DNA of 38,012 bases from Candidatus Bathyarchaeota archaeon (GCA_037386325.1 JARRMB010000003.1:1-38012); one strand, 5' to 3'. Shown: positions 10,801 to 28,941, counted from the stretch's first letter. Program-made: numbers and translations. The notes: generated by a model not told the origin, from the sequence alone.

Positions 10801-10805
10801 AATAT

Positions 10806-11777: not shown

Positions 11778-11855
11778 GTGTTAGTCTCCGTGAGGACTAA
11801 TAGAAAAAAGACCATTATAAATTAGTATTTGTAATATTTTTTTGCTAATAATATT

Positions 11856-12413: not shown

Positions 12414-12717
12414 AAAAACAAATTCATATAGTTGGCTATTTACATCTTTCTAAGATTAGTCCATCCATACAAATGAAATTAATTCCATGAAAATTACCAA
12501 TAGTCTTCGAGATAAATAGTCTCTACTTCATTTTTTCTTTTTTCAAATTTTTTTGTTTTTAAATAAAAATATTAAATTTAAATTTTCAATATGTATTTAA
12601 AAGAAAAAATTTAAATTTGAGCCCAAACATTTAACTCAAAAGTTAACAAAACCATAATGTTCGTAATATTATTACAAAAGTTACTGAATAACAATTTTAG
12701 TTGGTTGGAAATATTTA

Positions 12718-13929: not shown

Positions 13930-14005
13930 GACTAAATATAGGCAAATGAATATGTGAGAAGTTTAATTAGTATAGTGTGAATGAAGAGAAATCGGGGGTA
14001 ATTGA

Positions 14006-14392
14006 ATGAAAGAAAAAATGAGAATCTTGGTTGGTCTTGACGGTTCTGATTATTCTACTTGGGCATTGATGGAAGCAATTAGCTTAGCAAAAAAGTTCTC
14101 TGGTCATATTACAGTCATTACAGTTTACAAAAGAGGAAGTAAAGAAGAAGCAGATAAAATTCAATTGAAAGCTAATCAACTTTTAGAAGAAGAAAAAATT
14201 GATTGCAATTTACTATCAATTCTTGGCTCTAATCCTTCTAGAGCATTAGTTGAAACTGCAGAAAATGAAAAATTTGATTTGATTGTTGTTGGTAGCAGAG
14301 GGTTGGGTATGGCCGCTGCTTTCTTAATCGGTAGTGTTTCTAAACAAGTAGTTTCTAAAGCAAATTGTGATGTCCTAGTAGTGAAAAAATAG
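14006..14392 (+). CDS. Universal stress protein
   Basis: ILVGLDGS, DLIVVGSRG, GSVS, CDVLVV. Confidence 0.9.
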   Translation: MKEKMRILVGLDGSDYSTWALMEAISLAKKFSGHITVITVYKRGSKEEADKIQLKANQLLEEEKIDCNLLSILGSNPSRALVETAENEKFDLIVVGSRGLGMAAAFLIGSVSKQVVSKANCDVLVVKK

Positions 14393-14537: not shown

Positions 14538-15522
14538 TTGAGAATCTGTTTTTTTGTTTGGGAATATCCTCCAAAACTTGTTGGAGGATTAGGGACTTAT
14601 GCAGAATATATAACTCGTGAGTTTATTGAAATGGGTCATGATGTTACCGTTTTTACACTTAATCCTGGAAATCTTAAAACAAGAGATGTGATAAATGGCG
14701 TTGAAGTCCATCGACCATTAATTGCTGATGCAAGTAATGTCTTTCCCATGTTTGTAATTGATGACCTGAAAAAATGGGGAGCAAATCTTCGTTTATTCAA
14801 TGATATTTTTATATATAATATTTTGAGTGCAACAAAACTTGTTAATAGTCTAATTAAGAAAGAAGGCTACACATTTGATGTAGTTGCAGTTCATGATTGG
14901 TTAAGTAGTATTGCTGGAATAATCATAAAAAACGAAACGAATATTCCAGTAGTTTTTCACGTACATAGTACAGAATTTGGTCGATCTGGTGGACAAGGAT
15001 CTGAAGTTGTATCTCATTTTGAATCAGAAACAGCAAAAACTGCTGACAAAATAATTACAGTTAGTCACGCGATGCGAGAAGATCTAATTAGACATGGCAA
15101 AAAGGCTTGGAATAAAAAATAATGTAATTTGTCGTTTCGATTTTATACCTGAAGAAGAAAGAATTCTTCATTATGCTGCTTCAGATGTATGTGTTTTTCC
15201 TTCGGTCTATGAACCTTTTGGAATTGTAAGTCTCGAAGCTATGGCAATGGGAAAACCTATAGTTGTAGGAGCTCATGGTGTTGTTGGCTTTCGTGAACAA
15301 GTAATAAACTCTGGTCCTGAGCAGAATGGTATTCATATTAATGGAGAAAATGCGGCAGATATTGCTTGGGGTGTAAAAGAAGTGCTAAAAAATTTTGAAA
15401 AGGCAAAATTATGGGGTAAGAATGGTCGTGAAAGGGTTTTAAAATACTTTACTTGGGAGCAAGTTGTTGAACAAACACTTCAGATTTATCGATCTCTTCA
15501 ATCCAAGACAGCAAAAAAATAG
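14538..15522 (+). pseudogene. GT4-family glycosyltransferase split into two frames by an internal deletion near 15095
   Basis: The N-half (WEYPP..GGLG, HDWL, HSTE, ITVS) and C-half (VFPSVYEPFGIVSLEAMA) overlap in different frames. The NGVD and GRL..KG segment expected between them is absent. Confidence 0.8.
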
Positions 15523-15564: not shown

Positions 15565-16382
15565 TTATCTAACTATCAATACAGAACTTCTCGCATGTAT
15601 ACTTATGTCGTCACTTACACTACCGAGCATGTATCTTCTTACACTGCTTAAGCCTCTACTTCCTACTACAATGATGTCTACATTAGCTTTTTTTGCAACT
15701 TTTATTATGATTTCCGCTGGACTACCATATTCAAGTATCTTATCAAATGATAATCCTTTAACCTTTGTTTCTGCATCTTTTAAAATGCATTCTCCAACGG
15801 TTCCAAGACAATCTACTACTTGAGGTCCACCTATCCGAACAAGTTTATCTTCTTCAACATGAACCAAAGCCAAGTTAGCATTAAAATTTCGAGCCAATTC
15901 AGCTGAATATTCTAGTGCTTTATTAGAAGGTTTAGATCCATCAACAGCTGAAAGTATTTTCATTACTTTTGGTTTCTTTTTCACAATGAGAACTGAACAG
16001 TCAGAATGTCTTGCAACTTTCTCTGTAATACTTCCCAAAGAATAACGTTCAGATTGATGTTCTGCACGATTTCCAATAACAACTAAGTCATATTCTTCAT
16101 CTTTAACTAATTCTAGAATGTATTCAGCCGGATCTTCAAAGGTAACTAATCTTGCATCAACATCAATTTTCGCTTCTCTGAACATTTCCTCGGCATTTCT
16201 AATAAAAGTTGCAACAGTTCCGGATGCATAAATTCATGTGACGCTACATGAACCACAGTTACTTTTGATTTAAATTTCTTGGCGATTGAAGAAGCAAACA
16301 TTTTTGCATGAAGACAAGAATGGGAACCATCTACTGGAACTAGAATCTTTTTAAAAATTTGCCTATCAATCATCTCAGTCAC
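15565..16382 (-). pseudogene. Tandem two-domain universal stress protein, frameshifted near 16200-16215
   Basis: FKKILVPVDGS..HVASHEFMHPEL lies in one frame; IRNAEEMFRE..DLVVIGNR..LGS plus a complete second USP domain lie in another. Confidence 0.8.
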
Positions 16383-16425
16383 AAACTAAATTAACTATAT
16401 TGAATATTTTAAGTTTCTCGCAAAT

Positions 16426-17952
16426 TTATGATGATCCTGAGCTCACATTTAACGTGTCACTAATTATAGTTCCCAAATCAGTTCTAGTTAGTAAACCAAC
16501 AATTTTCTTAGGATTAGTTGAATCAACTACTGCAATACGATCCATTTTATGTATTCTCATCTTATTGAATGCAACAAGCACCAGATCTTCTGGAAATATC
16601 ACAATAGGGCTTTCTTGAACAATATCTCGAATTAGAACCTCGTTTCGTTTCTCTTTTTCAATCTTAGTCAAATCATCCAAACCTACGAGACCAATAAAAT
16701 TACCATTCTCATCAACTACAGGATATCCAGTATGATGATGTTTGGCCATGACATCTAATAGTTCATTTATGGAGAAATTAGGAGATACCGTATTAAGCTG
16801 TTTAGACATAACATCCTTTACTTGAAATTGTGAAAGCACTGCAATTTCTTTCAAGGGACGAACAGGAACAGGTACATAAGCTTCTTTCATATCAGAAATT
16901 TCTTTTAAGGCAGTTCTTCTTTTCTGTACCGCAGCCTGAAGTACATGTGAAAAAGCGTCCGGTTCAAGTTCTATTACACCTGTATTTATTACTCCTGCTT
17001 CTACTGCGGAATAAAAGAAATCTTCTCCTTCCTTTGTTCTTATGATAACCGTTGACCATTCTTTAAGAGGATATGCACTTCCGATTGAAATGTCAGCTAG
17101 TTCTGATGTGAAATCAGTGCAAGTTTCACAACTGGTCAAAATATGTGGTTTAACTTCAGATAATGGAATGGATATTTTACCATTTTCTGTTTGGACAATT
17201 AACTCTTTCAAGATGTCAAGTCGTTTTATTTCTTTTGGATTTATGTTATATTTTTTGGACAGAAAACTTAGCAAATGACTAAAAGAAAGAGTCCAGAAAC
17301 AGAAGAGACCTATTATAACTTTTAAGTTTCCAGTGATTTTATGTTCCCAAGCCTCAAGTTTTCGAAGAGCTTGTACATGACATGGGACTCCTACGAATGC
17401 GATATTACCTTTTCCATACTCATATACTGCACTTCCGTAAGCTCTAGCTACTGATGATGGAAAGAATTTGCTTCCCACTGCTGAAAAAACATCATCAGGG
17501 ACTTCACCAACTAAAGCCTTAGGTTTTATAGGAACATCAGTTTCTGCTTGAGAAACAATTGCGCTATCTATTATTCCTTTTTCAATTGCATTTGTTAAAA
17601 GAGTTGTAACCACCCCACCGCCATGACCTAGTTTCCTAAGTTCTGGATCTGCTGCTTGAGCTAATAAGATCCGTCTATAATGTCCTAATCCTTCTCTCTT
17701 TATTGGTGAATCTGAAACAAATTTTAGACTTTCATCAAGGAGATTTTCAGAATGTGGGCAAATATTGTAACATATAGGACAAGATTCTATATCTTTTGAG
17801 CAATCAAAATGTTCAATCCTATCTTCTTTTATTGTTATTGCATGAACGGGGCATGCTGCTTCACAAGCTCCACAGAAAGTGCAAAATCCAGAGTTTATTA
17901 TTTTAAATTCTAAGTCGTCATATGCGATATGTTTGTCTTTTTTTGTTACCAA
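16426..17952 (-). CDS. FrhB/FpoF-like F420-oxidoreductase subunit with N-terminal 2x[4Fe-4S] domain and C-terminal CBS pair
   Basis: CTFCGACEAACP and CPICYNICP; GGGVVTTLL, GVPCHVQA, IGLFC, CETCTDFTSELADISIG; CBS motifs VKDVM, GYPVVD, IAVVD..GLLTRTD. Confidence 0.88.
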   Translation of the reverse strand: MVTKKDKHIAYDDLEFKIINSGFCTFCGACEAACPVHAITIKEDRIEHFDCSKDIESCPICYNICPHSENLLDESLKFVSDSPIKREGLGHYRRILLAQAADPELRKLGHGGGVVTTLLTNAIEKGIIDSAIVSQAETDVPIKPKALVGEVPDDVFSAVGSKFFPSSVARAYGSAVYEYGKGNIAFVGVPCHVQALRKLEAWEHKITGNLKVIIGLFCFWTLSFSHLLSFLSKKYNINPKEIKRLDILKELIVQTENGKISIPLSEVKPHILTSCETCTDFTSELADISIGSAYPLKEWSTVIIRTKEGEDFFYSAVEAGVINTGVIELEPDAFSHVLQAAVQKRRTALKEISDMKEAYVPVPVRPLKEIAVLSQFQVKDVMSKQLNTVSPNFSINELLDVMAKHHHTGYPVVDENGNFIGLVGLDDLTKIEKEKRNEVLIRDIVQESPIVIFPEDLVLVAFNKMRIHKMDRIAVVDSTNPKKIVGLLTRTDLGTIISDTLNVSSGSS

Positions 17953-18000
17953 AGAATTCCCTTCTAATATTGTATTATTCTCTTAAGTTAAATTTTTGGA

Positions 18001-19482
18001 TTATACAGGTAAATATGGGGTAATTGAAGATAACACATTTAGAATTAAATCTGGGTATAAACCTAGAATGATAATTATTATTACTAAACAATATATTGGA
18101 ATCAGTAATTTTCTCGGTTCTTTAAACTGTTTATCACTGTTTGGAGTTTTGGCGTAAAAGTAATGTATAACCCTTAGCAGGTAAGCAGATTGAAGCACCG
18201 AATTAAGAACACCAACTACTGCCAACCATGCAACAGTTGATTGTAAAACTGAAGTGAACACCATATATTTTGCAATAAATCCTGCAAATAATGGTACTCC
18301 TGAAAATGAGAGGGCTGCACATACAAAAGCAAAACTTGTTAATGGCATTTTTCGTCCTAATCCCGCCATATCCTCCAAAGTTTCTAACCCCTTTCTTTTG
18401 AATACTCCAATAACCATAAACGCAAGAGCAGTCTCCATGGCCGCAACAAAGAAGAAAAATAAGTTACCTGTTAATCCAATAGACGTTATACTTGTTATCG
18501 CTATTAGATTGTAACCGATATCAGCGATACAAACGTATGATACCATTCTTTTTACATTTTGTTGAGCTAGTGCAAAAAGATTACCAACTATCATTGTAAA
18601 TGCAGAAAATACTGCAACAGTAAATCGCCAATCTACAATTTCTGTAGGTGTTAGAATGAATAATAGAACTCTTAGAAGCACATAGTAACTACCCTGATCT
18701 ACAATAGCTGATAAGAAAGCTGATCCAGAATCTGGTGCTGCAGTATAAGCATCAGGCAACCACATGTGAAAAGGAACAATAGCTGTTTCGATGGCATAAC
18801 CTGCAATGATAAAAGCAAATGCTACCAATAGAAGCTGTGGGTTACTCGTAGTTAACAGTACTTCTTTGACAATCCAGAAGTTTAGTGAACCGGTAAGGCT
18901 GTATAATAATGATAGTCCAAATATTGTAAAACCAGAAGCTATGATAACCATAATTAGATATTTTAATGCTGATTCTAATGATTCTCGAGTTTTCTTATAT
19001 GCTACGATAAAACAAGCACCTGCTGCTGTTGATTCCCAGAAAATAAAAAGAGTGAGTAAATCTCCTGAGAATGTAGCTGCTATTACAGTACCTGTGACTA
19101 TAAGCAACAATGCATAATATCTTTCGGATAGACTCTCTTTTGAATTTACATGCAGAACGCTATAAAGACAGGTAATAGTACCAACTACAATGTACGCACT
19201 AACCATGTATACTGATACTGTATCCACGAGAAATGTCGTTGATATTGGAGCTAAAATTGTATCTACTGCAGAAATTTGAAGAACTGGTTGTGATTGCGTA
19301 AAATATTCTGAAGCTATTCTGTAAACACCAATTGCAGCTATAGAAAAAGAAAGAAGTATCCATGCTACAATGAAATTTTGGGGATCTTTTTTTGTTCTTT
19401 TAATAAGGCGTACAAGTGGAACAGTAAGTAAGGAGCAAACCGTGAAAACTATTGTGGGCCATAGAATGTCGATTATGTTCAT
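18001..19482 (-). CDS. nuoN: Antiporter-like membrane subunit (NuoN/MrpD-like)
   Basis: DLLTLFIFWE, ESALKYLI, VPFHMWLPDAY, NVKRM, GVPLFAGFIAK. Confidence 0.85.
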   Translation of the reverse strand: MNIIDILWPTIVFTVCSLLTVPLVRLIKRTKKDPQNFIVAWILLSFSIAAIGVYRIASEYFTQSQPVLQISAVDTILAPISTTFLVDTVSVYMVSAYIVVGTITCLYSVLHVNSKESLSERYYALLLIVTGTVIAATFSGDLLTLFIFWESTAAGACFIVAYKKTRESLESALKYLIMVIIASGFTIFGLSLLYSLTGSLNFWIVKEVLLTTSNPQLLLVAFAFIIAGYAIETAIVPFHMWLPDAYTAAPDSGSAFLSAIVDQGSYYVLLRVLLFILTPTEIVDWRFTVAVFSAFTMIVGNLFALAQQNVKRMVSYVCIADIGYNLIAITSITSIGLTGNLFFFFVAAMETALAFMVIGVFKRKGLETLEDMAGLGRKMPLTSFAFVCAALSFSGVPLFAGFIAKYMVFTSVLQSTVAWLAVVGVLNSVLQSAYLLRVIHYFYAKTPNSDKQFKEPRKLLIPIYCLVIIIIILGLYPDLILNVLSSITPYLPV

Positions 19483-19499
19483 AAATTATACGCACCCAA

Positions 19500-20969
19500 T
19501 CATAAAGATGTAACAGCATGAATCAAGTCTATGAAAATTCCAGGATAAATACCAAGTATAACAACAAACGCTGCTAAAGCAATCATTGCAATAATCATGT
19601 AAATATGTGGATCCTTAATGTCTTCTCTGGGTTCTTTTGGTGCTTCTAGGAAAACTTTCCAGAAGTATCTTAGAACATAAGCAAGACTAAACACAGTTGC
19701 GATAAGCATTAAAATAGTGGGTAAATAAAATGCTCCATCTGCACCAGATGCGGTAACAGCTCCAACAAAAATATGAAACTCACTTATGAAACAGGCAAAA
19801 GGCGGAATACCGCCTATACTAAAAGCTGCAATAGCAGAAGTGATCGCAGTAAGAGGCATCTTTGATGCTAAACCACCCATATCCTTGATGTTTCTCACAC
19901 CTGTTTGATGCATTACTGCACCTGCAGTCAAGAAGAGAAGTCCTTTGCTTGCTGCATGGTTAACTAGATGGAGTACTCCTCCAGTGATTCCCTCTGGAAT
20001 TGGATAGAGGGATAACGCAAACAGAACGTATCCCATGTGACTTATACTAGAATAAGCAATTATCCGTTTAATGTCTGTTTCAGCTAGCGCTAAGAGAGAT
20101 CCATAAAACGCTGATAATACCCCAAAAAAGCTTAGCACTAACAAGAAATCATTGCTAGTTGTTGCCATAGCAGAATAAACTGTTCCAAGAGCTATTCTTA
20201 GAACTGCATATCCTCCTGCCCCAATTATTACTCCACTCAGAAGAGCGGACATCGGTGCGGGTGCTTCACCATGGGCGTCTGGAAGCCACATGTGAAGAGG
20301 AACAATAGCCATCTTTACAGCAAAACCTGCAGTAAATGAAATCAAAATCCAATTTAGAATGCCGGGATCAATATTCATTAGAAGTGTTTGTGCTTCAAAA
20401 ATGTCAAGAGTACCTGTGAGCATGTAGATAGCACCAATACCCAGCAAGACAAAAATTGCACCTGCATGTGTGAAGATGAAGAATTTAAAAGCAACCTTAA
20501 ATGAGTCTCTGTATCCCCATCCCCCAATTATGAAATATGTTGGAACAAGCATAAGTTCCCAACAAAAGTAGAACAGCAATAGATTGGATGTTATAAATAC
20601 TCCAACTAATCCGATTGTTAACAAACTCATTAGTGCATAATATTGTGGAAGCGATTTCTTTTCTTCCATATAATTTATCGAAAATATAGTTGCACTTGCG
20701 ACCAGAATTAATGTAACAATAGCTAGCGATAAGCTGATTCCATCCACAAAAAGTGTAAATGCAGAACCCAATGATGGTATCCAATAATAGGATTCAATAT
20801 ACTGTCCCTCATTAAGAACAGTGGGTATTAATGTTAGAAGAAGAGATAAACTGATTAATGAAAGAACAGCAAGTATAAGAGCTGCTATTCTTGCGGATTT
20901 TTTACCAATGCCATAGACTATTGGAATAGCCAAGACAGGCAACATTAAAGCTATTAATAATGTTTGCAT
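19500..20969 (-). CDS. nuoM: Antiporter-like membrane subunit (NuoM-like)
   Basis: VDGIS, WELMLVP, KFFIFT, VKMAIVPLHMWLPDAHGEAP, KRIIAYSSISHMG, FISEF. Confidence 0.9.
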   Translation of the reverse strand: MQTLLIALMLPVLAIPIVYGIGKKSARIAALILAVLSLISLSLLLTLIPTVLNEGQYIESYYWIPSLGSAFTLFVDGISLSLAIVTLILVASATIFSINYMEEKKSLPQYYALMSLLTIGLVGVFITSNLLLFYFCWELMLVPTYFIIGGWGYRDSFKVAFKFFIFTHAGAIFVLLGIGAIYMLTGTLDIFEAQTLLMNIDPGILNWILISFTAGFAVKMAIVPLHMWLPDAHGEAPAPMSALLSGVIIGAGGYAVLRIALGTVYSAMATTSNDFLLVLSFFGVLSAFYGSLLALAETDIKRIIAYSSISHMGYVLFALSLYPIPEGITGGVLHLVNHAASKGLLFLTAGAVMHQTGVRNIKDMGGLASKMPLTAITSAIAAFSIGGIPPFACFISEFHIFVGAVTASGADGAFYLPTILMLIATVFSLAYVLRYFWKVFLEAPKEPREDIKDPHIYMIIAMIALAAFVVILGIYPGIFIDLIHAVTSL

Positions 20970-20975
20970 TTTATT

Positions 20976-23075
20976 TTACCTCAAAGCTGTAAATGCTAAT
21001 ATAATAATGATTATGAAAAAACCAATTATAGCTGCTAAAATGAAGTCTGGTAAATGTCCCCTATGGATTTTCTCAATTTTGCGTCCTTGTTCAACTGTTT
21101 TTCCTGCAAAAAGGTAAACCAATTTATCAAGAAATGTGTCAATATATTCATGGGTTACCTTAGCAGTTTCCACTGTTCCACCTGCAAGAATATACCCAAG
21201 GCGATCCAAGAAAGATTCAAGATGGGTATGTGTTTTGTTAGCAGTTACTACTGCTCCACCTGATATTATGTAAACAAATCTATCAAGGAATTTTTCTATG
21301 TAGTCATGAGTTCCATTTGCTAATCTTGAAGCGCTACCTGCAACTACATAGGGAAATCTTTGTAATCCTGAATTTTCAATAGTTTGATACGCGAATTGTG
21401 ACAAACCCATAACTCCATTCAATATTTTGTAGTACACAGCATCAAAATAATAACCATTGTTTACTAAACGATAAAGTGAATTATTTAAAAAACTTCTTGT
21501 TGAAACCGTTGAAGTATCCCTCTTTTTAAAGTAAAGATAATATGCGGTAGGGATAGCAATAGATAGAATAATTGCTGAAGTCAAACTAGCAAACACAAGT
21601 CCATTTAATGAAACTTCAAAATGTATCTCAAGAAAATGTTCTAGTGGTCCTTTGAAGAAACCTGCGATACAAGATGCAGCCGCTAACAAAATAAGCGGTA
21701 TAGTAATTGTTGGTTTAGGGTCATGTATTTGATGTTTTTCAAGATGCTCAGATTTTTTTCCAAGGAAAACTAGACTTATCCAACGAAGGCTGTAAATAGC
21801 TGTTAATACCGAAGTTCCGAAAATAAGGATGAAAAGGGGAAGATTATTGCCAAGGATAATTGCTTCGAATATTGTATCTTTACTCCAGAATCCACTGAAA
21901 GGTGGAATCCCAGCAAGCGAAAAAGCCCCAATAACACTTACAATAAATGTTATGGGCATTGCCTTTCTCAATCCTCCGAGCTGTTTTATGTCTAAAGTGT
22001 GAGTTACATGCATCACAACTCCTGCAGAAAGGAAAAGCAAAGATTTGAAAAGAGCATGACTTATCACATGAAATTGACTTGCAAACCAACCCAACTCAGT
22101 TCCAATGCCTAGAGCAGACATTATCATTCCAAGCTGGCTAATTGTAGAAAACGCTAGAACTCTTTTCAGATCGGTACTAGTTAATGCCATAGTTGCTGCA
22201 AGGAGAGCTGTTATTCCCCCAATATAGGTTATAGTAGTTAACCACGGTGCTACAAGCGAGAAAAGAATGTAAATTCTTGCTACAAGGTAAATTCCTGCTT
22301 TAACCATTGTTGCACCGTGAATTAGAGCGCTAACTGGTGATGGCCCCTCCATTGCATTGGGAAGCCATACCTGCAATGGAACTTGGGCTGATTTACCGAT
22401 AGCTCCAATCAGCATTAATAAAGCCACAGTCAACATTGGAACTGAGACCGATCCTTCGGCAATAAGTTCACGGGTTTTTAGGAAGTCTAAGGTTCCTGTA
22501 TTTACGAATAACAATAAAATTCCAAGAAGTAGAAAAATATCACCAATTCTTGTAACGATGAAAGCTTTAATACCTGCTTTAGCTGCTTCAGGTCTACTAT
22601 ACCAGAATCCAATAAGAGAATAAGAGCATAGTCCAACTGTTTCCCAGAAGAAGTACATTTGTAGAAGATTGTTAGCCATAACTAATCCGAGCATTCCACC
22701 AACGAAAAGTAACATAAAGAAAAAGAATCTGGGTGTAGCCTTTTCTTTTTCCATATATTTTACAGAGTAAATCATTATCAATAAGCCGATGCAAGCTGCT
22801 ATATTTGCCATCATTGTGCTTAACGGGTCGATAAGGACACTGAGGTCTATGCCTAAAGCAGGCATCCAAGGTATAGAATAAACTTGTGCTTCAACATGGG
22901 CTTCAAGTAAGTTTGGAATCATTGAAACTGTGCATACTGCGGCAAGGAAAGTAATTAAAACAGCAAACCATCCAACACTTTTGCGACGTAACTTCGCTAC
23001 AAGAGGAATAAATAATGAGCCTGCAAAGGGAATTCCCCAACTTAGCCATGAAGCAAATTCAAGAGGAATTAGCAT
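20976..23075 (-). CDS. nuoL: Antiporter-like subunit with extended lateral helix (NuoL-like)
   Basis: DPLS, WETVGLCSYSLIGFW, RIGD, GKSAQVPL, PVSALIH, HALFK, GFWSKD, YYFD, terminal TM helix; 699 aa. Confidence 0.92.
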   Translation of the reverse strand: MLIPLEFASWLSWGIPFAGSLFIPLVAKLRRKSVGWFAVLITFLAAVCTVSMIPNLLEAHVEAQVYSIPWMPALGIDLSVLIDPLSTMMANIAACIGLLIMIYSVKYMEKEKATPRFFFFMLLFVGGMLGLVMANNLLQMYFFWETVGLCSYSLIGFWYSRPEAAKAGIKAFIVTRIGDIFLLLGILLLFVNTGTLDFLKTRELIAEGSVSVPMLTVALLMLIGAIGKSAQVPLQVWLPNAMEGPSPVSALIHGATMVKAGIYLVARIYILFSLVAPWLTTITYIGGITALLAATMALTSTDLKRVLAFSTISQLGMIMSALGIGTELGWFASQFHVISHALFKSLLFLSAGVVMHVTHTLDIKQLGGLRKAMPITFIVSVIGAFSLAGIPPFSGFWSKDTIFEAIILGNNLPLFILIFGTSVLTAIYSLRWISLVFLGKKSEHLEKHQIHDPKPTITIPLILLAAASCIAGFFKGPLEHFLEIHFEVSLNGLVFASLTSAIILSIAIPTAYYLYFKKRDTSTVSTRSFLNNSLYRLVNNGYYFDAVYYKILNGVMGLSQFAYQTIENSGLQRFPYVVAGSASRLANGTHDYIEKFLDRFVYIISGGAVVTANKTHTHLESFLDRLGYILAGGTVETAKVTHEYIDTFLDKLVYLFAGKTVEQGRKIEKIHRGHLPDFILAAIIGFFIIIIILAFTALR
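21120..21353 (-). repeat. Three diverged in-frame 78-bp (26-aa) tandem repeats in the NuoL amphipathic helix
   Basis: PYVVAGSASRLANGTHDYIEKFLDRF / VYIISGGAVVTANKTHTHLESFLDRL / GYILAGGTVETAKVTHEYIDTFLDKL, followed by a partial unit VYLFAGKTVE. Confidence 0.88.
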
Positions 23076-23077
23076 GT

Positions 23078-23410
23078 TTAGGTTTCCTCCTGAATTTCAT
23101 CATCTTCCGATTTGGGTAACTCTTCATTCATGTCTGATAGATCTCTGAAATCTCGAACGTTTAATTGTTTATAGATTGCTATTGCAAGTGCAAGGGCAAC
23201 AGCTGTTACACAAGCATCAACCGACAATGCGAGAATTGCAAATGCTTGGCCAAGTGTGTCTTGCATTAATGATCCAAAAACAACAAAATTCATTGTTGCA
23301 GCTGCGGTAATCATTTCTATTGCGATTAACATTTTTATTAAGTCATGTTTTGTAACAAGACCTACTACTCCTATGGCTAGAATCGTTATAGATAATATTA
23401 TGTAATCCAA
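23078..23410 (-). CDS. nuoK: NuoK-like 3-TM subunit
   Basis: IKMLIAIEM, GQAFAIL; position between J and L; TTG start. Confidence 0.85.
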   Translation of the reverse strand: MDYIILSITILAIGVVGLVTKHDLIKMLIAIEMITAAATMNFVVFGSLMQDTLGQAFAILALSVDACVTAVALALAIAIYKQLNVRDFRDLSDMNEELPKSEDDEIQEET

Positions 23411-23875
23411 TTACTTGCGCCCCTGTTTATCTTTCAAAAGAATTGCCACACCAACTGCAGCAACCAAAACTACCAAACCTTGAGCAAGGACGTCAATCGC
23501 CCTCAAATCCCACAAGGCTGTAGAGAGAGAAAAATCGAATGAACTTGTAAATGTTTGTGTTATTACAGTTCCAACAATTACTGGAATAGAAAGGATGGCA
23601 GAAGCAATTAATGCTGCAATCTTTGTTCTGTTGGAAGTTTTTAGATCGTTTCTCTTAGTTAATGAATCACCTGCAAGAAGGAAAATTGCTGCCGTTCCTG
23701 CACCTATTGCCAGTTGAAAAATAGCCGCAAAAGGTGAATTAAGATTAAAATATAACAGCGAAAGCAGAAGCATCATTGTGCTTAAAGACAAAACTGAAGA
23801 TACTGTTTCTTTCAGATAAATCGCAAAAACTGCAGAGGTTATCATTCCAATCGCTAGGATAGTTTCAAACCACAT
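23411..23875 (-). CDS. nuoJ: NuoJ-like membrane subunit
   Basis: About 5 TM helices, AAIFQLAIGAG, LWDLR; start moved to ATG 23875, adjacent to the nuoI stop. Confidence 0.75.
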   Translation of the reverse strand: MWFETILAIGMITSAVFAIYLKETVSSVLSLSTMMLLLSLLYFNLNSPFAAIFQLAIGAGTAAIFLLAGDSLTKRNDLKTSNRTKIAALIASAILSIPVIVGTVITQTFTSSFDFSLSTALWDLRAIDVLAQGLVVLVAAVGVAILLKDKQGRK

Positions 23876-23876
23876 A

Positions 23877-24278
23877 TTATTTTTCCTCACTTGTCGATGT
23901 TTTTTGTTTTGAAACAAATTCTTCTGGGTGTATTAGCAATTTTTCTGTTTCAGTTGTCGACATTTCATAATTGGGAGAAAGTTTAATCGCTTCTCTGGGG
24001 CAACTTTCAGCACAAAGATAACAAAATATGCACCGATCAAGATAGAATTTTGGCATTCGTTTTCCTGAAACTTCAATTAATTCTATGGCTTTCGCTGGGC
24101 AATCTCTTTCGCATAACCCACAACTAATGCACTTTTCAGGAGATAAAACTTGTCTACCTCTATATCCATCAGGAACTTCTACCTTTATTATTGGGTATTG
24201 ACGAGTAATTGGTTTTTTAAATATACATGCACCCATGTCTTTTAATAAGGCTGGAAATCGTCGTCGTTTTTTCGGCAT
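23877..24278 (-). CDS. nuoI: NuoI/HycF-like 2x[4Fe-4S] subunit
   Basis: TRQYP, GYRG, CISCGLCERDCP, CIFCYLCAESCP. Confidence 0.92.
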   Translation of the reverse strand: MPKKRRRFPALLKDMGACIFKKPITRQYPIIKVEVPDGYRGRQVLSPEKCISCGLCERDCPAKAIELIEVSGKRMPKFYLDRCIFCYLCAESCPREAIKLSPNYEMSTTETEKLLIHPEEFVSKQKTSTSEEK

Positions 24279-24289
24279 TCCTTCTCCTC

Positions 24290-26875
24290 CTACGCAATAA
24301 CCGCTCGCAAAAATGGTTCAATAATTACTGTGAGTGCAAGAGAAACAATAGATAATGGAATCAATAATTTCCAATTACCATGAACAACCTGATCAATTCG
24401 CAATCTAGCAGAAACGTTACCAATATATTCTAAGACAAAAACCACTCCTAGAGTCTTTACAATAAACCAGAAAACATACCACAGATCTGGTGGACCAAAA
24501 AAAGCTGGCCCATGAGCTCCACCTAAAAATAGAACAGTTACTAATGATGCACCAACCAAAAATTGAAAATCTTCTGAAAGTTTAATGAAAGCCAATTTTC
24601 TTCCTCCATATTCTGTTTCATAGCCTCCTACAATTTCAGTTTCTGCGTGCGGAATATCAAATGGATCTTTTTCCAATTCAGCTTGTAAGACGATAATAAA
24701 TAAAACAAGAGACCATGGAATTAACAGAGCAAAAGGAATAGATTGGCTTGCTGTAATATTTACAATCGACAAACTATTTGCAAGAAAAGCTGGACAAATC
24801 GCTAGAATAATAAGAGGAATGTCATATCCGAGAAATTGGGTTAAAATTCTAGTTGCTCCGATCCCACTATAAGGATTTAAGGAAGACCATCCTGAGAGAA
24901 ATATTCCAAAGTTGGCCAGAGTAATTAGAATAAATACAAGAATTAAATCACCTTCAAAACTTGAATTCAAAATTACATTTGCGCCGTCAATTGGAATATA
25001 AAATAAAGCAAGAACAAAAAGAGAAAAAGCAAGCATCGGTGCTACAACAAAGAGTATTTTATTTGTTTGCTCTGGTGTTATATCTTCTTTTGAAAACAAT
25101 TTTATATAATCCGCTATTGGTTGAAGTAAACCAAAGGGTCCAGCATATGATGGTCCCATTCTATTTTGGAATCTAGCCGCAACTTTTCTTTCGAACCAAT
25201 CAAAAAATAATACAAGTACTAAGAGAAAAATAAATCCAGGAAAAAGAATTGTCCTAAATTGGTCTTCGTTAGTATCTATGAAAGCCATACGATCAGTGCA
25301 TGAAAAACATGGATCTAGACTTCCCATAACCGAAGGGATATCAGCAATATATGAACCTCTAATCGCATCAGGAAAAGCTACAAGATTTGCTAAAGTTGGG
25401 GCTCTAACTTTGACTCTGTATGGATAAGCAGTTCCATCACTTTTGACGTAATGTATGAGTTCTCCTCTGGGGGCTTCAACGCGACTTACTGCTTCACCTT
25501 CTGGAATTTTTCGTTGAACTCTGACTCTTAAACGTCCTCCTGGAAGATGATTGAATCCATATTCGATTATGTCTAAGCTTTCCAGTACTTCTTCAGCTCT
25601 AACCATCAAACGAGCCCATGTATCGCATTCGTTGTAGCTAATTACGTTAAATGGAATTTCATCATAAGCTGCATAAGGATCATCTTTTCTTACATCAGCG
25701 TCTATTCCCGAACCTCGGGCTACTGGACCTACAACACAATATTTTAAGGCGTCTTCTCTTTTCAAGACTCCAACACCTTCAGTCCTCAACCTTAATGTTG
25801 CATCTTCTTCAAACACATTCTTGTAAAATATTGCTCGTTTGCGAACGTCTTTAACAGTTTTCAATGCTTTCTCGATCGTATTTGGATCTATGTCTCTTCT
25901 AACTCCTCCGATTGTATTGAATCCATTCATCAACCGATTACCCGTAATCCTTTCCACTATGTCCATTACCGGTTCTCGATCACGCCACACATGTTGAAAC
26001 AGTGCTTCAAAACCTAATAAATGACCTCCAACTCCAAGTAGCAGGAGATGACTATGGACTCGATTTAATTCGTGAATTATTGTCCGTAAGTATAACGCCC
26101 GAGGTGGAGTTTCAATTTTTCCAACATCTTCGACAGCTTGGCAAAAAACAGTTGTATGAGCAGCATTGCATATTCCACAGATTCTTTCAACAAGAAAGAC
26201 ATCTTGATGGTACATCATCCTTTCAGCAGCTTTCTCAATTCCTCTATGAACATAACCAAGACGCTGTTCAACATCAACTATTCTTTCTCCATCAACTTTG
26301 AAGGAGAATCTTTCTGGTTCATGCAAAACAGGATGCTGTGGACCTACTACTACATTTACAATAGATCCCGCATCGGTTTCTTCTATGCTCTCAGATTTTT
26401 GTGATTCTTCAGAATTAGTATTTTCTTCTTGTTGCTCAGGTGATTTCCAATTTTTTCGAAGTGGATAGTTCCCCTTAGGCCAACTTTCAGGTAGCATTAA
26501 TCTTTTAAGGTCTGGATGTCCCTCAAAAACTACTCCTAATAAATCAAAAACTTCCCGTTCATATAGGTTTGCTCCAGGAACGATGTCAGTTATTGTTTTA
26601 GTGAACGGTTTTTCAATGGGAATCCTATTTTTTAATGTTATCACACCATTGCAGGCCATATGATAATTTAATTCTATTTCATTTCCCAGATCTATTCCAG
26701 TTATGGTTGAAAGCAATATTTTTTCATCATAATTTATAAGTAAAGAGATTGCATCTTTGTGCTTTTCTGGCTTAAGTAAAATATATGCTCTCTTAGACCT
26801 AGGAATATTACATTCTATGATATCTTTTGCAAACTTTTCTTTTAGGACGTCTACAGCTTTTTCAAACTTTTCCAT
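24290..26875 (-). CDS. Triple fusion: NuoC-like domain + group 4 [NiFe]-hydrogenase large subunit + NuoH/HycD-like membrane subunit
   Basis: EREVFDLLGV.F.GHP..YPLRK (C domain); GPQHP, GYVHRGIEK, ERICGIC and DPCFSCTDR (Ni-Fe ligands); then ERKVAARFQNRMGP, QPIADYIKL and PFDIPHAETE (H domain), all in one frame. Confidence 0.88.
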   Translation of the reverse strand: MEKFEKAVDVLKEKFAKDIIECNIPRSKRAYILLKPEKHKDAISLLINYDEKILLSTITGIDLGNEIELNYHMACNGVITLKNRIPIEKPFTKTITDIVPGANLYEREVFDLLGVVFEGHPDLKRLMLPESWPKGNYPLRKNWKSPEQQEENTNSEESQKSESIEETDAGSIVNVVVGPQHPVLHEPERFSFKVDGERIVDVEQRLGYVHRGIEKAAERMMYHQDVFLVERICGICNAAHTTVFCQAVEDVGKIETPPRALYLRTIIHELNRVHSHLLLLGVGGHLLGFEALFQHVWRDREPVMDIVERITGNRLMNGFNTIGGVRRDIDPNTIEKALKTVKDVRKRAIFYKNVFEEDATLRLRTEGVGVLKREDALKYCVVGPVARGSGIDADVRKDDPYAAYDEIPFNVISYNECDTWARLMVRAEEVLESLDIIEYGFNHLPGGRLRVRVQRKIPEGEAVSRVEAPRGELIHYVKSDGTAYPYRVKVRAPTLANLVAFPDAIRGSYIADIPSVMGSLDPCFSCTDRMAFIDTNEDQFRTILFPGFIFLLVLVLFFDWFERKVAARFQNRMGPSYAGPFGLLQPIADYIKLFSKEDITPEQTNKILFVVAPMLAFSLFVLALFYIPIDGANVILNSSFEGDLILVFILITLANFGIFLSGWSSLNPYSGIGATRILTQFLGYDIPLIILAICPAFLANSLSIVNITASQSIPFALLIPWSLVLFIIVLQAELEKDPFDIPHAETEIVGGYETEYGGRKLAFIKLSEDFQFLVGASLVTVLFLGGAHGPAFFGPPDLWYVFWFIVKTLGVVFVLEYIGNVSARLRIDQVVHGNWKLLIPLSIVSLALTVIIEPFLRAVIA

Positions 26876-26877
26876 TT

Positions 26878-27306
26878 TTATTCCTTCAATTTTTCTAGAA
26901 GTTTTGCGACTCCTTGAACTATAGCTTCTGGTTTAGGAGGACAACCTGGGATATAAACGTCAACTGGAATTATCTTATCTAAACGTTGACTAACTCCGTA
27001 ACATCCCTGAAATATTCCGCCTGAACAAGCACAAGCTCCAATCGCTATTACAAATTTTGGTGAAGGCATTTGCTCATAAATTGTCTTGAGTCGAGATATG
27101 CATTGTTTGGTAACTACTCCAGTTACTACAAGAACATCTGCGTGTCTAGGTGAAGGTTCAAGCTTTATTCCAAAACGTTCGACATCGTATCTTGGTGTTA
27201 ACAAAGCTACAACTTCAATATCGCAGCCGTTGCATGCTCCGGTATTGAAATGGAGAAGCCAAGGTGATTTTCTCCTTGCCCAATTTAGTAGTTTTGAAGT
27301 TGACAC
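26878..27306 (-). CDS. nuoB: Hydrogenase small subunit (NuoB/HycG/EchC-like)
   Basis: GACNGCDIE (CxxC, hydrogenase type), SPRHAD, GACACSGG, PGCPP. Confidence 0.92.
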   Translation of the reverse strand: MSTSKLLNWARRKSPWLLHFNTGACNGCDIEVVALLTPRYDVERFGIKLEPSPRHADVLVVTGVVTKQCISRLKTIYEQMPSPKFVIAIGACACSGGIFQGCYGVSQRLDKIIPVDVYIPGCPPKPEAIVQGVAKLLEKLKE

Positions 27307-27629
27307 TATTCATGCCCTCCTAAAAGTAGCAAATCTGCTACTAACACCAAACCTAGATAAATTAACAAATTAATTGGACTAATCATTTCTAAAGACAAAG
27401 CAGCGAATGCTAGTATCAAAGCTGGAGAATCGATTATTACGAAGTATATCAGATATCTAAATAGTGTTACATTTACTAAAAGTTTAGTTGGATTAATTTT
27501 TTCTCCACAAGCATACATTCTATTTTTTTCTTTGTTGTCAGAAGTTTTGGGTGATAAACGCCCCATAAAAATATAGATTAATGAAGCTCCTGCTAATATT
27601 AAAATAAATGCAGCAATTGGTTCGAACAT
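27306..27629 (-). CDS. nuoA: NuoA-like 3-TM subunit
   Basis: TM helix, loop with K..YACGE, two more TM helices; first nuo-like gene of the operon. Confidence 0.75.
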   Translation of the reverse strand: MFEPIAAFILILAGASLIYIFMGRLSPKTSDNKEKNRMYACGEKINPTKLLVNVTLFRYLIYFVIIDSPALILAFAALSLEMISPINLLIYLGLVLVADLLLLGGHE

Positions 27630-27733
27630 TAAGCCTTCACCTTTTCAATAGAGTAAATTATTTGGAATTGAATGTTTAATTTTGTTCGAAAAGGAGGTTT
27701 AATTTTATTTTTTGAATTAAGAGTCACCGCCAT
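27629..27733 (-). CDS. Putative 34-aa leader ORF (MAVTLNSKNKIKPPFRTKLNIQFQIIYSIEKVKA)
   Basis: Preceded by AAGGAGG; its stop overlaps the nuoA start (TAATG). No homology evidence. Confidence 0.3.
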   Translation of the reverse strand: MAVTLNSKNKIKPPFRTKLNIQFQIIYSIEKVKA

Positions 27734-27826
27734 CCAATTCTGCCTCCTTTCGATTCAATTATTACAACTTTTTTTATAGAGTTTTTCCTCTATTTCGTGT
27801 TAATTGTAGCCAGTTAGACGAATTGG

Positions 27827-27853
27827 TATAAACTTTTCGTATAAGTTTATATA
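27827..27853. promoter_or_regulatory. Back-to-back BRE/TATA promoters forming the palindrome TATAAACTT-N7-AAGTTTATA
   Basis: Minus strand CGAAAAGTTTATA faces the hydrogenase operon; plus strand AAGTTTATATA faces the regulator gene. Confidence 0.6.
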
Positions 27854-27909
27854 TTTATTATATTTACTTAAACTCGATTTTCCTTATTTAAACTTAGAGG
27901 AATCCTATA

Positions 27910-28941
27910 ATGTCTGAAACTAGAAAACTCCAAAAAATAGGAAGAACTCTTTACGTTTCAATTCCAAAATCATGGTCTAAACAAATGAAATTGAAACATG
28001 GAGATAAAGTCAACATGCTTTTGCAACCAGACAATTCTATGTGTATATCTTCAATTGATTTTCAAGAAAGTCCTCGAGAAATTACATTAAAAATCAAATC
28101 CCAATCCTCTAAGCATTCAATTAAACGAGAAATTGTTGCCGCTTATGTTGATGGTTTTGATATAATTAAAGTAATTTCAGAAGAAAGTATTTCAGATGAA
28201 AAACATGATGCAATTCGAGAAATAATAAATAGTTTATTTGGTCTGGAATTAATCGAAATTTCAAAAAATAGTATGACAATTCAATGTTTGCTTAAAAGAA
28301 GTTTAGAAATAGACAAAACAATTCATCGAATACATAATGTTATTTCCTCTATGTTTGAAGAAACCATTGTTATATTACGAAAACAAAATGCTAGTCCAAT
28401 TTCTGGTTTATCAAGAAGAATGGAAGATATTAGAAGACTTCATTTAGTTTCCAATCGTTTACTTCGAAGTTTTTTGCTTTTTCCTGATCCAAAAAATAGT
28501 ATGGAAATTAGTTTAATTGATTGCGTTGATTACCTTCAAATTCTCCATTTAATATCAGAAATTGCTTCAAATGTACATAGAATCTCTCAAAGTGTTTCAT
28601 CATTAAATAGTCATGAGCTTCCTAAGCAGGTGTCAGAGCCATTGTATCAAGTAAGTGCAACAATAAAACGCTCCTTGGATTCCTCAGTTGAAGCTTTACT
28701 TACCAAGGATATAGTTCTAGCAAATCAAATCCTAGATATGAAACAAACTTCTGAGATGAACCTTGAAGAATTATGGAAATTCTGTAAAAATACTAGTAAC
28801 TCAACAATTTCAAGTCGTATTTTATCTTATGCTTATCTTCTCATCGATTGTTTAAAACGTATAAATCATCACTCTTCTGAAATTTCTGAAATTGCCATAG
28901 ATAGAGCTGAAGCTTCTAATGTTAATATTCAGAAGTCTTAA
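27910..28941 (+). CDS. Archaeal AbrB-PhoU-type regulator
   Basis: ETRKLQKIG..YVSIPKSW (AbrB/SpoVT), REIVAAYVDGFD, helical PhoU-like C-terminus. Confidence 0.85.
   Translation: MSETRKLQKIGRTLYVSIPKSWSKQMKLKHGDKVNMLLQPDNSMCISSIDFQESPREITLKIKSQSSKHSIKREIVAAYVDGFDIIKVISEESISDEKHDAIREIINSLFGLELIEISKNSMTIQCLLKRSLEIDKTIHRIHNVISSMFEETIVILRKQNASPISGLSRRMEDIRRLHLVSNRLLRSFLLFPDPKNSMEISLIDCVDYLQILHLISEIASNVHRISQSVSSLNSHELPKQVSEPLYQVSATIKRSLDSSVEALLTKDIVLANQILDMKQTSEMNLEELWKFCKNTSNSTISSRILSYAYLLIDCLKRINHHSSEISEIAIDRAEASNVNIQKS

Follow-up and report, generated by a model that had tools for sequence, protein, structure and literature searches.

The [NiFe] hydrogenase Hfo of Bathyarchaeia is an Fpo-like complex of 11 subunits belonging to subgroup 4g (Loh, Herve & Brune 2021, PMC7886697), and the gene cluster of Ca. 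Bathyarchaeum tardum has been equated with Hfo by its authors (PMC10477458). In the accessible text of Loh et al. and Qi et al. these complexes are described as lacking FpoFO, the F420 module, and FrhB homologues are treated as orphans by the former (Loh et al. 2021, PMC7886697). A group 4 [NiFe] hydrogenase flanked by frhB and termed Ehi has been proposed to oxidise F420H2 in Methanonezhaarchaeia, according to the available part of the preprint (10.1101/2025.06.25.661132). A further point of comparison is the zeta subunit of the F420-reducing CODH of Ca. Ethanoperedens thermophilum (8RIU), which the accessible sections describe as anchored through its ferredoxin domain (PMC11493965).

The locus analysed here lies on the minus strand of a 38,012-nucleotide stretch of Candidatus Bathyarchaeota archaeon DNA (the window), where ORFs and Pfam matches give the complex-I-like gene order A-B-CD-H-I-J-K-L-M-N between positions 27629 and 16426, including a last gene termed FrhB-CBS. 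The operon starts with hfoA, encoding a NuoA/FpoA-like membrane subunit of 107 aa (27306-27629; Oxidored_q4, 28.5 bits, cut-off 23.3), followed by hfoB for a NuoB-like hydrogenase small subunit of 142 aa (26878-27306; Oxidored_q6, 122 bits; NCBIfam nuoB_fam, 171 bits) and hfoCD, which encodes the [NiFe] large subunit with a NuoC-like domain fused to it (25259-26875; Pfam and motif coordinates). The NuoH-like membrane subunit is encoded by hfoH (24290-25258; NADHdh, 300 bits) and the NuoI-like 2x[4Fe-4S] subunit of 133 aa by hfoI (23877-24278; Fer4 families); eight cysteines of HfoI are invariant across 27 homologues. Two small membrane subunits, hfoJ (23411-23917; Oxidored_q3, a marginal 33.5 bits at a cut-off of 33.2) and hfoK (23078-23410; Oxidored_q2, 71 bits), precede the antiporter-like subunits hfoL (699 aa; 20976-23075), hfoM (19500-20969) and hfoN (18001-19482), which match Proton_antipo_M with 276, 235 and 196 bits, respectively. 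All eleven Hfo subunits are therefore recovered by Pfam and NCBIfam in Fpo/Nuo order, with C and D as one gene and with J and A scoring near their cut-offs, whereas families of the NuoE/F/G type are absent among the 35 window ORFs scanned with Pfam.

Since CD is 77% identical to its homologue in the B. tardum cluster, itself equated with Hfo, the operon is almost certainly the Hfo of Bathyarchaeia. It shares with Hfo, as far as the accessible descriptions go, the eleven subunits, their Fpo/Nuo order, both large-subunit motifs, the lack of NuoEFG and the Bathyarchaeia host. Hfo is, however, defined as having neither an FpoFO nor a NuoEFG module, and the operon here closes with a conserved gene of the FrhB/FpoF family with a CBS pair, a difference from the published account that we do not take to exclude membership. 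The core hydrogenase is already known, and the FrhB-CBS gene is unreported in the accessible parts of the published Hfo descriptions. An earlier, sequence-only reading of this DNA had suggested an undescribed system, which does not hold for the core enzyme; its caveat that related Bathyarchaeia clusters may have been described was well placed, given the accessible accounts of Hfo (Loh et al. 2021) and of B. tardum. Nor is an frhB-linked, F420H2-oxidising hydrogenase new as an idea, having been proposed earlier for Methanonezhaarchaeia in the available text of the preprint (10.1101/2025.06.25.661132). By description, Ehi shares with the present locus the membrane-bound, group 4 type of hydrogenase and a neighbouring frhB. 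It differs in belonging to another class and another complex, in its organism encoding F420 biosynthesis and in that a CBS fusion is not described for it in that text.

The large subunit retains a complete Ni-Fe site. Group 4 enzymes are defined by the motifs L1 (RxCGxCxxxH) and L2 (DPCxxCxxR) in the accessible text of Loh et al. (2021, PMC7886697), and CD carries both, with RICGICNAAH at aa 231-240 (26156-26185) and DPCFSCTDR at aa 521-529 (25289-25315), so that the D part has all four Ni-Fe cysteines. HfoB contributes C25-x2-C28, C92, C94 and C122 and should hold the [4Fe-4S] cluster adjoining the Ni-Fe site. The main features given in the sequence-only reading are thus borne out: a Nuo/Fpo-like A-to-N order, the absence of nuoEFG, an intact Ni site, a CxxC in B and an FpoF/FrhB-like gene 48 bp behind the operon. 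Its implied separate C and D genes are correct in their order but not in their separateness, as C and D form one gene in all relatives.

Ranked by PDB matches, the closest solved relatives of CD are HycE of the Escherichia coli formate hydrogenlyase (FHL; 7z0s_E, 1.5e-99) and MbhL of the Pyrococcus furiosus Mbh (6cfw_L, 3.8e-80), both from energy-converting group 4 enzymes, with NuoCD behind at 4.9e-75 and weaker. Mbh has a Mrp-type sodium module with fewer antiporter-like subunits, and FHL receives its electrons from formate dehydrogenase; unlike the present locus, neither is known to possess the complete A-N order or an FrhB module. The complete complex I gene order, together with an hfoL that scores near the NuoL equivalog (544 bits, NCBIfam cut-off 556), would also suit a respiratory Fpo/Nuo-like complex reducing a membrane acceptor, in which the Ni-site cysteines are a relic. 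Such a relic is very improbable, as the four Ni cysteines and both motifs are kept in relatives down to 52% identity and the large subunit is nearer to HycE and MbhL than to NuoD. In addition, the large subunits of relatives carry a C-terminal extension of 25-33 aa, of the kind cleaved at Ni insertion, and the genome itself encodes the maturation proteins HypD (471 bits) and a HycI-type endopeptidase (53.6 bits). Methanophenazine genes are moreover reported as lacking in Bathy-6 in the accessible text of Loh et al. (2021, PMC7886697).

In the window, C, D and H are read in frame as a single ORF of 861 aa (24290-26875; Complex1_30kDa, NiFeSe_Hases/Complex1_49kDa and NADHdh), whereas CD is a stand-alone protein of 551-563 aa in relatives. 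Alignment with the DNA of L004, L006 and L001 shows that the window lacks 84 bp at 25258|25259 that relatives possess, which brings H into frame with CD after the initial 10 residues of the C-terminal extension. Contigs from three of the four sequencing runs (X4, X6 and X20) have 84 extra letters between 25258 and 25259, the fourth run having no cover there. The CD-H fusion thus probably reflects a gap in the assembly or a rare variant. A similar case is the conserved downstream neighbour of the operon, a tandem universal stress protein (USP) gene (15565-16373, minus strand; Usp, 148 bits). It encodes 277-297 aa in the loci of 11 close relatives and is shorter in the window, where 9 letters at 16205-16215 are replaced by 73 in the X4 and X6 contigs, so the short form looks like an assembly gap as well.

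The last gene of the operon (16426-17952, minus strand) starts 48 nt past the stop of hfoN and encodes an FrhB/FpoF-like flavoprotein of 508 aa fused to a CBS pair. Pfam places a ferredoxin domain (Fer4) at 17689-17913, FrhB_FdhB_N at 17443-17667, FrhB_FdhB_C at 16972-17406 and two tandem CBS repeats at 16459-16830 (aa 378-498, 81 bits). Cysteines 24, 27, 30, 34, 58, 61, 65, 218, 275 and 278 are conserved without exception across 28 homologues, and the combination of FrhB_N and FrhB_C with conserved cluster cysteines marks an FrhB/FpoF-type module. The best PDB matches are 8riu_B (1.1e-47, residues 8-341) and FrhB (3zfs_C, 4.2e-43), and all of the best matches are F420 oxidoreductases, namely the CODH zeta subunit, FrhB and Fsr; a relative that does not use F420, 7-hydroxymethyl chlorophyll a reductase, matches at 2.4e-9. 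The CODH zeta subunit and its Fwd counterpart (8RJA) likewise combine a 2x[4Fe-4S] ferredoxin with an FAD/[4Fe-4S] F420-reductase domain and plug into a ferredoxin-type enzyme via the ferredoxin domain, as laid out in the accessible sections of the report (PMC11493965). The host in the window is a hydrogenase rather than CODH or Fwd, and a C-terminal CBS pair replaces the short dimerisation tail.

Identity with either of the two classical F420-linked complexes was considered and rejected. Fpo of Methanosarcina, an F420H2:methanophenazine oxidoreductase, has the same A-to-N order, and FpoF is also a member of the FrhB family with an N-terminal ferredoxin part. However, FpoD has no Ni site whereas the D subunit here keeps its Ni ligands, and the FpoF equivalog NF040616, matched over profile positions 6-292, reaches 108.6 bits where its cut-off is 475. 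The group 3a hydrogenase Frh couples H2 to F420 through its FrhB subunit, but it is a soluble enzyme whose large subunit is of group 3, in contrast to the group 4/complex I type large subunit with a membrane arm found here. The FrhB equivalog TIGR03289 (NCBIfam) reaches 173 bits against 331.5, and the FrhA and FrhG models align only weakly and in part with D, B and I.

The proposed synteny of the frhB-CBS gene with the operon is well conserved. It follows hfoN in 15 of the 16 related archaeal loci in which N is complete and the DNA continues, at distances of 22-131 nt, and is absent behind N only in L021. In the window, the 48-nt gap contains no terminator-like site. A sample of 151 Bathyarchaeia genomes was surveyed more widely: FrhB-like genes occur in 125, and such a gene lies within 15 kb of a D-like gene in 28 of the 76 genomes that have both among the matches listed. 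In 20 annotated regions FrhB stands beside B/D/I in varied arrangements (behind N, ahead of A, immediately behind I, or convergent with B-D-I), and 18 of the 20 D genes keep both Ni motifs. Where clusters are split, FrhB remains at the B/D/I locus with the best NuoH-like match elsewhere in the genome (five of five genomes tested). The CBS-bearing form adjoins hydrogenase genes in 10 of the 13 genomes having it, and in a sister genus the same gene lacks the CBS pair (L101, L102).

These distributions bear on the possibility that Hfo is purely ferredoxin-coupled and ion-translocating as published, with FrhB-CBS acting as a separate soluble oxidoreductase (e.g., ferredoxin:F420) that shares neighbourhood or regulation through common redox pools. 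Besides the accessible accounts of the complexes as lacking FpoFO, such a separate enzyme would agree with the missing gene in L021 and with G115 and G087, where the available flanks of FrhB-CBS (at least 2.5 kb to one side and 6 kb to the other) contain no Hfo gene. Of the 26 genomes in which C+D is matched over its full length at 45% identity or more, only 10 show the CBS-bearing form among the matches listed, and the AT-rich 48-nt gap could hold an internal promoter. Nevertheless, the FrhB-type gene keeps its link to B/D/I in at least four distinct gene orders, and it lies directly behind I on the same strand in L087, where the ORFs are 6 nt apart, and in L092. Furthermore, the closest relatives of solved structure are not free enzymes but subunits bound within larger FeS enzymes. 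A structure prediction of FrhB with subunit I, a check put forward with the sequence-only reading, also speaks for association: HfoI with FrhB-CBS residues 1-365 scores 0.68 and the best of three controls 0.01. The prediction passes the docking mark, a level attained in 116 of 157 solved complexes and in 2 of 215 mismatched pairs. Three runs share at least 70% of the contacts, with a partner pLDDT of at least 83. The interface residues of HfoI are predicted to be 49-55, 58, 67, 74 and 92-96, its cysteine motifs (49-58 and 92-96) lying on the ferredoxin-domain motifs of FrhB (33-36 and 54-60). The ferredoxin domain of FrhB-CBS is thus predicted to dock on HfoI, although the score may partly echo likeness to the solved FrhB-FrhG or zeta-CODH complexes. 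A separate soluble enzyme appears rather unlikely, and FrhB-CBS is probably a subunit of Hfo.

The nature of its substrate is more evenly poised, with F420 having about an even chance. The genome encodes the F420-dependent enzymes Mtd (381 bits) and Fno/npdG (171 bits), B. tardum has Mer, CofE and Fno, and Mer scores above its cut-off in three of three further genomes of the genus. Profile searches for CofG, CofH and CofD, however, came up empty both in the genome itself, which is 81% complete, and in the complete genome of B. tardum. The F420 pathway and the accompanying hyp and cof genes proposed as a check in the sequence-only reading are hence only partly in evidence: HypD, HycI and the F420-dependent enzymes are present, and the three biosynthetic genes were not found. 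CofH turned up in only 17 of the 151 Bathyarchaeia genomes and in no other member of the same order (33 genomes); among the 13 genomes with FrhB-CBS it occurs in none, and CofD in six. F420 would therefore be salvaged, or the substrate would be something else. A true Hfo subunit whose flavin site serves a non-F420 carrier or substrate, in lineages unable to make deazaflavin, would account for the missing Cof genes, for the disparity between CofH and FrhB-like genes (17 against 125 of 151 genomes) and for the sub-threshold FrhB and FpoF equivalog scores. The FrhB_C family also matches in the control genomes of Synechococcus and Bacteroides, neither of which is known to make F420. Such a carrier is nonetheless improbable next to Mtd and Fno in the same genome, Mer throughout the examined genus relatives and best sequence matches that all use F420. 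Moreover, elsewhere in the class a gene for an Mtd-like and Mer fusion lies directly upstream of an FrhB-like gene facing B-D-I (L088), and FrhB-like genes adjoin CofD in G004, G005, G083 and G146.

On balance, the best overall explanation, held with modest confidence, is that the last gene of the Hfo operon encodes an extra peripheral subunit coupling a hydride carrier, most likely F420, to H2/H+. The protein has three parts, namely an N-terminal 2x[4Fe-4S] ferredoxin, an FrhB-type FAD/[4Fe-4S] domain and, at the C-terminus, a CBS pair. In the proposed mechanism its ferredoxin domain would dock at the distal cluster of HfoI, so that HfoI and HfoB would wire the flavin site to the Ni-Fe site of HfoD and a carrier of two-electron hydride, in all likelihood coenzyme F420, could be coupled to H2/H+. 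Subunits H, A, J, K, L, M and N would tie the redox step to ion translocation, and the CBS pair would probably sense an adenosine nucleotide and gate the FrhB module. Gene content, motifs, the conserved linkage and the presence of maturation genes and F420-dependent enzymes are established here, and we infer the binding of FrhB-CBS to the complex, its use of F420, the reaction direction and the CBS role. A bolder proposal, which we regard as possible and advance tentatively, is that Hfo with FrhB-CBS acts as a membrane-coupled, nucleotide-gated F420H2:H+ oxidoreductase, or in reverse as a gradient-driven H2:F420 reductase at low H2, with deazaflavin being salvaged by organisms unable to make it. 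It would then be one form of a wider, unrecognised Bathyarchaeia family of group-4-derived hydrogenases with an FrhB-type module always on the B/D/I arm. If true, Hfo with FrhB-CBS would amount to an Fpo with protons rather than methanophenazine as terminal acceptor. The F420/H2 couple yields about 11 kJ/mol from textbook potentials, which fits poorly with a full three-antiporter pump.

Upstream of hfoA, a divergent gene on the plus strand (27910-28941; Pfam) encodes an AbrB/MazE-type protein with a PhoU domain, a candidate regulator that often neighbours these clusters. A homologue adjoins the cluster in 10 loci and is also found beside the B-C-D-I-FrhB-CBS locus L087.

The hydrogenase genes lie on the minus strand of the window, where the G+C content is low (0.30-0.39), and encode eleven complex I/Fpo-type subunits in canonical order, as established by ORF calling and Pfam. 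These are A (27306-27629), B (26878-27306), a single 861-aa ORF containing the C, D and H domains (24290-26875), I (23877-24278), J (23411-23917), K (23078-23410), L (20976-23075), M (19500-20969) and N (18001-19482). The stop codon of N is separated by 48 nt from the start of the FrhB-CBS gene (16426-17952, minus strand), whose 508-aa product comprises an N-terminal Fer4 domain, the FrhB_FdhB_N and FrhB_FdhB_C domains and two CBS repeats according to Pfam. The same annotation places a tandem USP gene after it (15565-16373, minus strand) and a divergent AbrB/MazE+PhoU gene upstream of the operon (27910-28941, plus strand). The D part carries RICGICNAAH at aa 231-240 and DPCFSCTDR at aa 521-529, the cysteines of B are arranged as C25-x2-C28, C92/C94 and C122, and I contains two CxxCxxCxxxC motifs with eight cysteines, while NuoE, F or G families are absent among the 35 window ORFs scanned with Pfam. 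The sequence-only reading had described an A-N order with intact Ni-Fe motifs, followed after 48 nt by an FrhB-type gene and lacking nuoEFG; given the gene order, the D and B motifs, the linked FrhB-CBS gene and the absent NuoE/F/G, this observation is therefore correct. A scan for sigma-70-type promoters returned 48 sites in the window against 46.2 expected and is uninformative, the host being an archaeon.

As far as the core of the enzyme is concerned, the further proposal of an undescribed energy-converting system is not borne out. Among the homologues listed, the named relatives of CD (NuoC-like plus [NiFe] large subunit) all come from Bathyarchaeia, many of them from Ca. Bathyarchaeum, and the same cluster, with a CD that is 77% identical, is present in Ca. 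Bathyarchaeum tardum (L001), whose genome is complete. In the available portion of its description, the B. tardum cluster is presented with L1 and L2 motifs and referred to ‘Hfo’ (PMC10477458), which the accessible text of Loh, Herve and Brune defines as an Fpo-like 11-subunit [NiFe] hydrogenase of subgroup 4g (PMC7886697). When compared with solved structures, the large subunit matches HycE (1.5e-99) and MbhL (3.8e-80), both ahead of NuoCD. Furthermore, the source genome encodes HypD and a HycI-type endopeptidase. Taken together, the B. tardum match, the Hfo papers, the likeness of the large subunit and the maturation genes therefore identify the core as the published enzyme type.

Two features of the window are read as assembly gaps or rare variants rather than biology. 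All of the best 120 homologues of CD are 551-563 aa long; in related loci CD has an extension of 25-33 residues past L2, and H is always a separate gene, of 330 aa. DNA alignment shows that, relative to these relatives, the window lacks 84 bp between 25258 and 25259; the loss removes the CD end, the stop codon and the first H codons and thereby creates the in-frame CD-H fusion of 861 aa. Contigs from three sequencing runs of three studies (X4, X6 and X20) contain 84 extra letters at exactly this position, a fourth run (X1) having no cover there. A genuine CD-H fusion freed by the maturation protease is rejected on the basis of the homologue lengths, the loci with separate genes and the 84 letters recovered in three runs. 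Likewise, the USP gene forms a 206-aa ORF in the window against 277-297 aa in the loci of 11 relatives, and in the X4 and X6 contigs 73 letters replace 9 at 16205-16215, which is thus probably also an assembly gap. A GT4-type glycosyltransferase at 14538-15522 is split into two overlapping ORFs (N-terminal and C-terminal domain) and may represent a third frameshift of the assembly. Beyond it, about 1.2 kb from the USP gene of the operon, lie a Na+/H+ exchanger gene and then a single-domain USP gene (12718-14392).

The FrhB-CBS gene has a different standing in the literature. As far as the accessible text goes, Loh et al. report that FpoFO is absent from the cluster and that FrhB homologues are orphans that might work with Hdr (PMC7886697), Qi et al. 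state that fpoFO is missing from Bathyarchaeia (PMC8407382), and a figure legend in ISME Communications places the FpoF gene far from the Fpo/Nuo-like genes (PMC11697101). Full-text searches brought up no paper describing FrhB-CBS as a subunit of Hfo, although the genes may stand side by side, unremarked, in supplementary tables. A close precedent is the ‘Ehi’ of Methanonezhaarchaeia, a group 4 hydrogenase flanked by frhB for which, in the part available, F420H2 oxidation is proposed (10.1101/2025.06.25.661132). The operon in the window is genuine, and its enzyme type is known; for FrhB-CBS the claim of novelty stands only in part, this probable subunit being under-reported and not categorically new.

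The association of FrhB-CBS with the operon is conserved. A search of genome contigs gave 505 pattern matches, 424 of which encode relatives, and the best 80 of these correspond to 78 loci. In 15 of the 16 archaeal loci among L001-L033 with a complete N and DNA beyond it, FrhB-CBS follows N (the exception being L021) at distances of 22-131 nt. None of the 45 remaining loci (L034-L078) has the gene; their sources are bacteria, Atabeyarchaeia and another three Bathyarchaeia, and their architectures differ.

In a class-wide sample of 151 Bathyarchaeia genomes, FrhB-like genes are present in 125 and D-like genes in 119. Among the best 150 matches listed per query, both occur together in 76 genomes and within 15 kb of each other in 28. 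Annotation of 20 of these 28 regions revealed four kinds of gene order: A-B-CD-H-I-J-K-L-M-N-FrhBCBS; FrhBCBS ahead of A to N at a distance of about 1 kb (L093, L094); A-B-C-D-H-I-FrhBCBS (L092) or, by Pfam, HypA and an Mrp/NUBPL-type ATPase followed by B-C-D-I-FrhBCBS (L087); and a small B-D-I set facing an FrhB gene that lacks the CBS pair (L086, L088-L091, L105). Both Ni motifs are kept in the D of 18 of the 20 regions, one of the others having L2 only by pattern and one neither. The CBS-bearing form is found in 13 of the 151 genomes and stands beside hydrogenase genes in 10 of them; two (G115, G087) have no hydrogenase genes within the available flanks, and in the third (G068) the contig is too short to tell. 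In the sister genus the gene is the same but lacks the CBS pair (L101, L102). Where B/D/I loci have no membrane genes nearby, the cluster has probably been split, as a NuoH-like gene is present elsewhere in all five genomes tested; for the same reason no ‘soluble’ B-D-I-FrhB hydrogenase is claimed. With a single D-like match in each of G011, G029 and G035 and NuoH located elsewhere, a split cluster is the simpler reading. In such split clusters, the FrhB gene stays with the genes of the peripheral arm.

A physical link between FrhB-CBS and the NuoI-like subunit HfoI is also predicted. From the loci, 27 HfoI and 28 FrhB-like sequences were aligned, and the complex of HfoI with FrhB-CBS residues 1-365 was predicted with a score of 0.68, compared to 0.01 for the best of three controls; 116 of 157 solved complexes attain this mark, as do 2 of 215 mismatched pairs. 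The runs share at least 70% of contacts, with a partner pLDDT of at least 83. Predicted contacts connect HfoI residues 49-55, 58 and 92-96 with FrhB residues 33-36, 54-60 and 202-205, around cluster cysteines on both sides, a modelled placement that fits the needs of an electron relay. The prediction supports binding of FrhB-CBS to HfoI, although likeness to solved FrhB-containing complexes may raise the score. In Ca. Ethanoperedens, the F420-reducing CO dehydrogenase has a zeta subunit that is the nearest solved relative (8riu_B, 1.1e-47); this subunit shares the layout of ferredoxin and FrhB domains with FrhB-CBS and, according to the accessible part of its description, is anchored to its host enzyme via the ferredoxin domain (PMC11493965).

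F420 as the substrate is favoured by the best matches of FrhB-CBS, which are all F420 oxidoreductases (zeta subunit, FrhB and Fsr). Against it, the protein scores under the equivalog thresholds for FrhB and FpoF. FrhB-CBS may act on a substrate other than F420. The F420 pathway, on whose presence the original proposal depended, is only partly represented. The source genome encodes an F420-dependent Mtd (381 bits) and an Fno/npdG over the cut-off (171 bits), B. tardum has CofE at 262 bits, and Mer exceeds the cut-off in each of the three other genomes from the genus and, across the class, in 43 of 151. CofG, CofH and CofD were found neither in the source genome (81% complete) nor in the complete genome of B. 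tardum. CofH occurs in 17 of 151 genomes, nearly all from two families, and is absent from the 33 others that belong to the order of the source genome, while CofD occurs in 67 of 151; the 13 genomes with FrhB-CBS include none with CofH and six with CofD. Genomic context adds that no more than about 1 kb separates an FrhB-like gene from CofD in G004:C5, G005:C2, G083:C1 and G146:C25. Furthermore, in L088, at 10064-13182 on the minus strand, a 649-aa gene fusing an MtdA-like N-terminal domain (Mpt_N) with Mer stands immediately upstream of the FrhB-like gene, both converging on the B-D-I set. Most simply, these archaea would use F420 but obtain the deazaflavin from outside, and many Bathyarchaeia lineages seem to use F420 without making its chromophore, judging by the counts of Mer (43), CofD (67) and CofH/FO synthase (17) among the 151 genomes. 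In B. tardum FrhB-CBS is the sole FrhB-family gene, no second match being found; the idea that it is the only route of F420 recycling there was dropped, as an Fno/npdG gene is present. Besides FrhB-CBS, the source genome encodes another FrhB-like protein, which includes a ferredoxin domain but lacks the CBS pair; its gene is 3 kb away from an F420-dependent Mtd gene (contig C97, 3125-3946 and 7087-7497; L081).

In the proposed mechanism, electrons would pass from the FAD and [4Fe-4S] cluster of the FrhB domain to the two clusters of its ferredoxin domain, and onward via the two HfoI clusters and the HfoB cluster to the Ni-Fe site. With standard potentials of about -340 to -360 mV (F420), -414 mV (H2) and about -500 mV (ferredoxin), the F420/H2 couple yields little energy in either direction. 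At the low H2 of sediments, oxidation of F420H2 to H2 could drive some ion export, equivalent to an Fpo with protons as acceptor, and the reverse reaction would require a gradient. The full L, M and N set looks oversized for either direction. In line with the published model, HfoI may additionally react with ferredoxin as a second substrate. In HfoL, three 26-residue tandem repeats (THxY/HI/LExFLDR/K...) occupy aa 589-666 (21078-21311) before the last membrane helix, a stretch taken to be the lateral-helix region.

Few archaea are as abundant in anoxic sediments as Bathyarchaeia, whose energy metabolism has been deduced almost entirely from genome sequences. In published models Hfo is a ferredoxin-only hydrogenase, and how the F420 pool serving Mer and Mtd is reduced or re-oxidized is left open. 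A conserved FrhB-type subunit of Hfo would, if true, fill this gap and revise both the predicted flow of electrons and the number of ions budgeted per electron. After those of the CODH and Fwd of Ethanoperedens, it would be the third F420-reductase module on a ferredoxin-type enzyme. In addition, the occurrence of F420 enzymes without FO synthase in many genomes points to dependence on the deazaflavin of neighbours, which bears on the difficulty of growing these archaea alone.

The CBS pair suggests control by adenosine nucleotides or the energy charge of the cell. Its first repeat carries a K-H-H-H-x-G-Y-P-V motif in 19 aligned CBS-bearing homologues, with few rows substituted (alignment A3, columns about 447-456); to our knowledge, other CBS pairs are not reported to carry a motif of this kind. 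The AbrB/MazE+PhoU-domain gene adjoins the hydrogenase cluster, on either side, in 10 loci (L004, L005, L007, L008, L009, L012, L026, L029, L087 and L101) and is a candidate for a dedicated regulator of these clusters.
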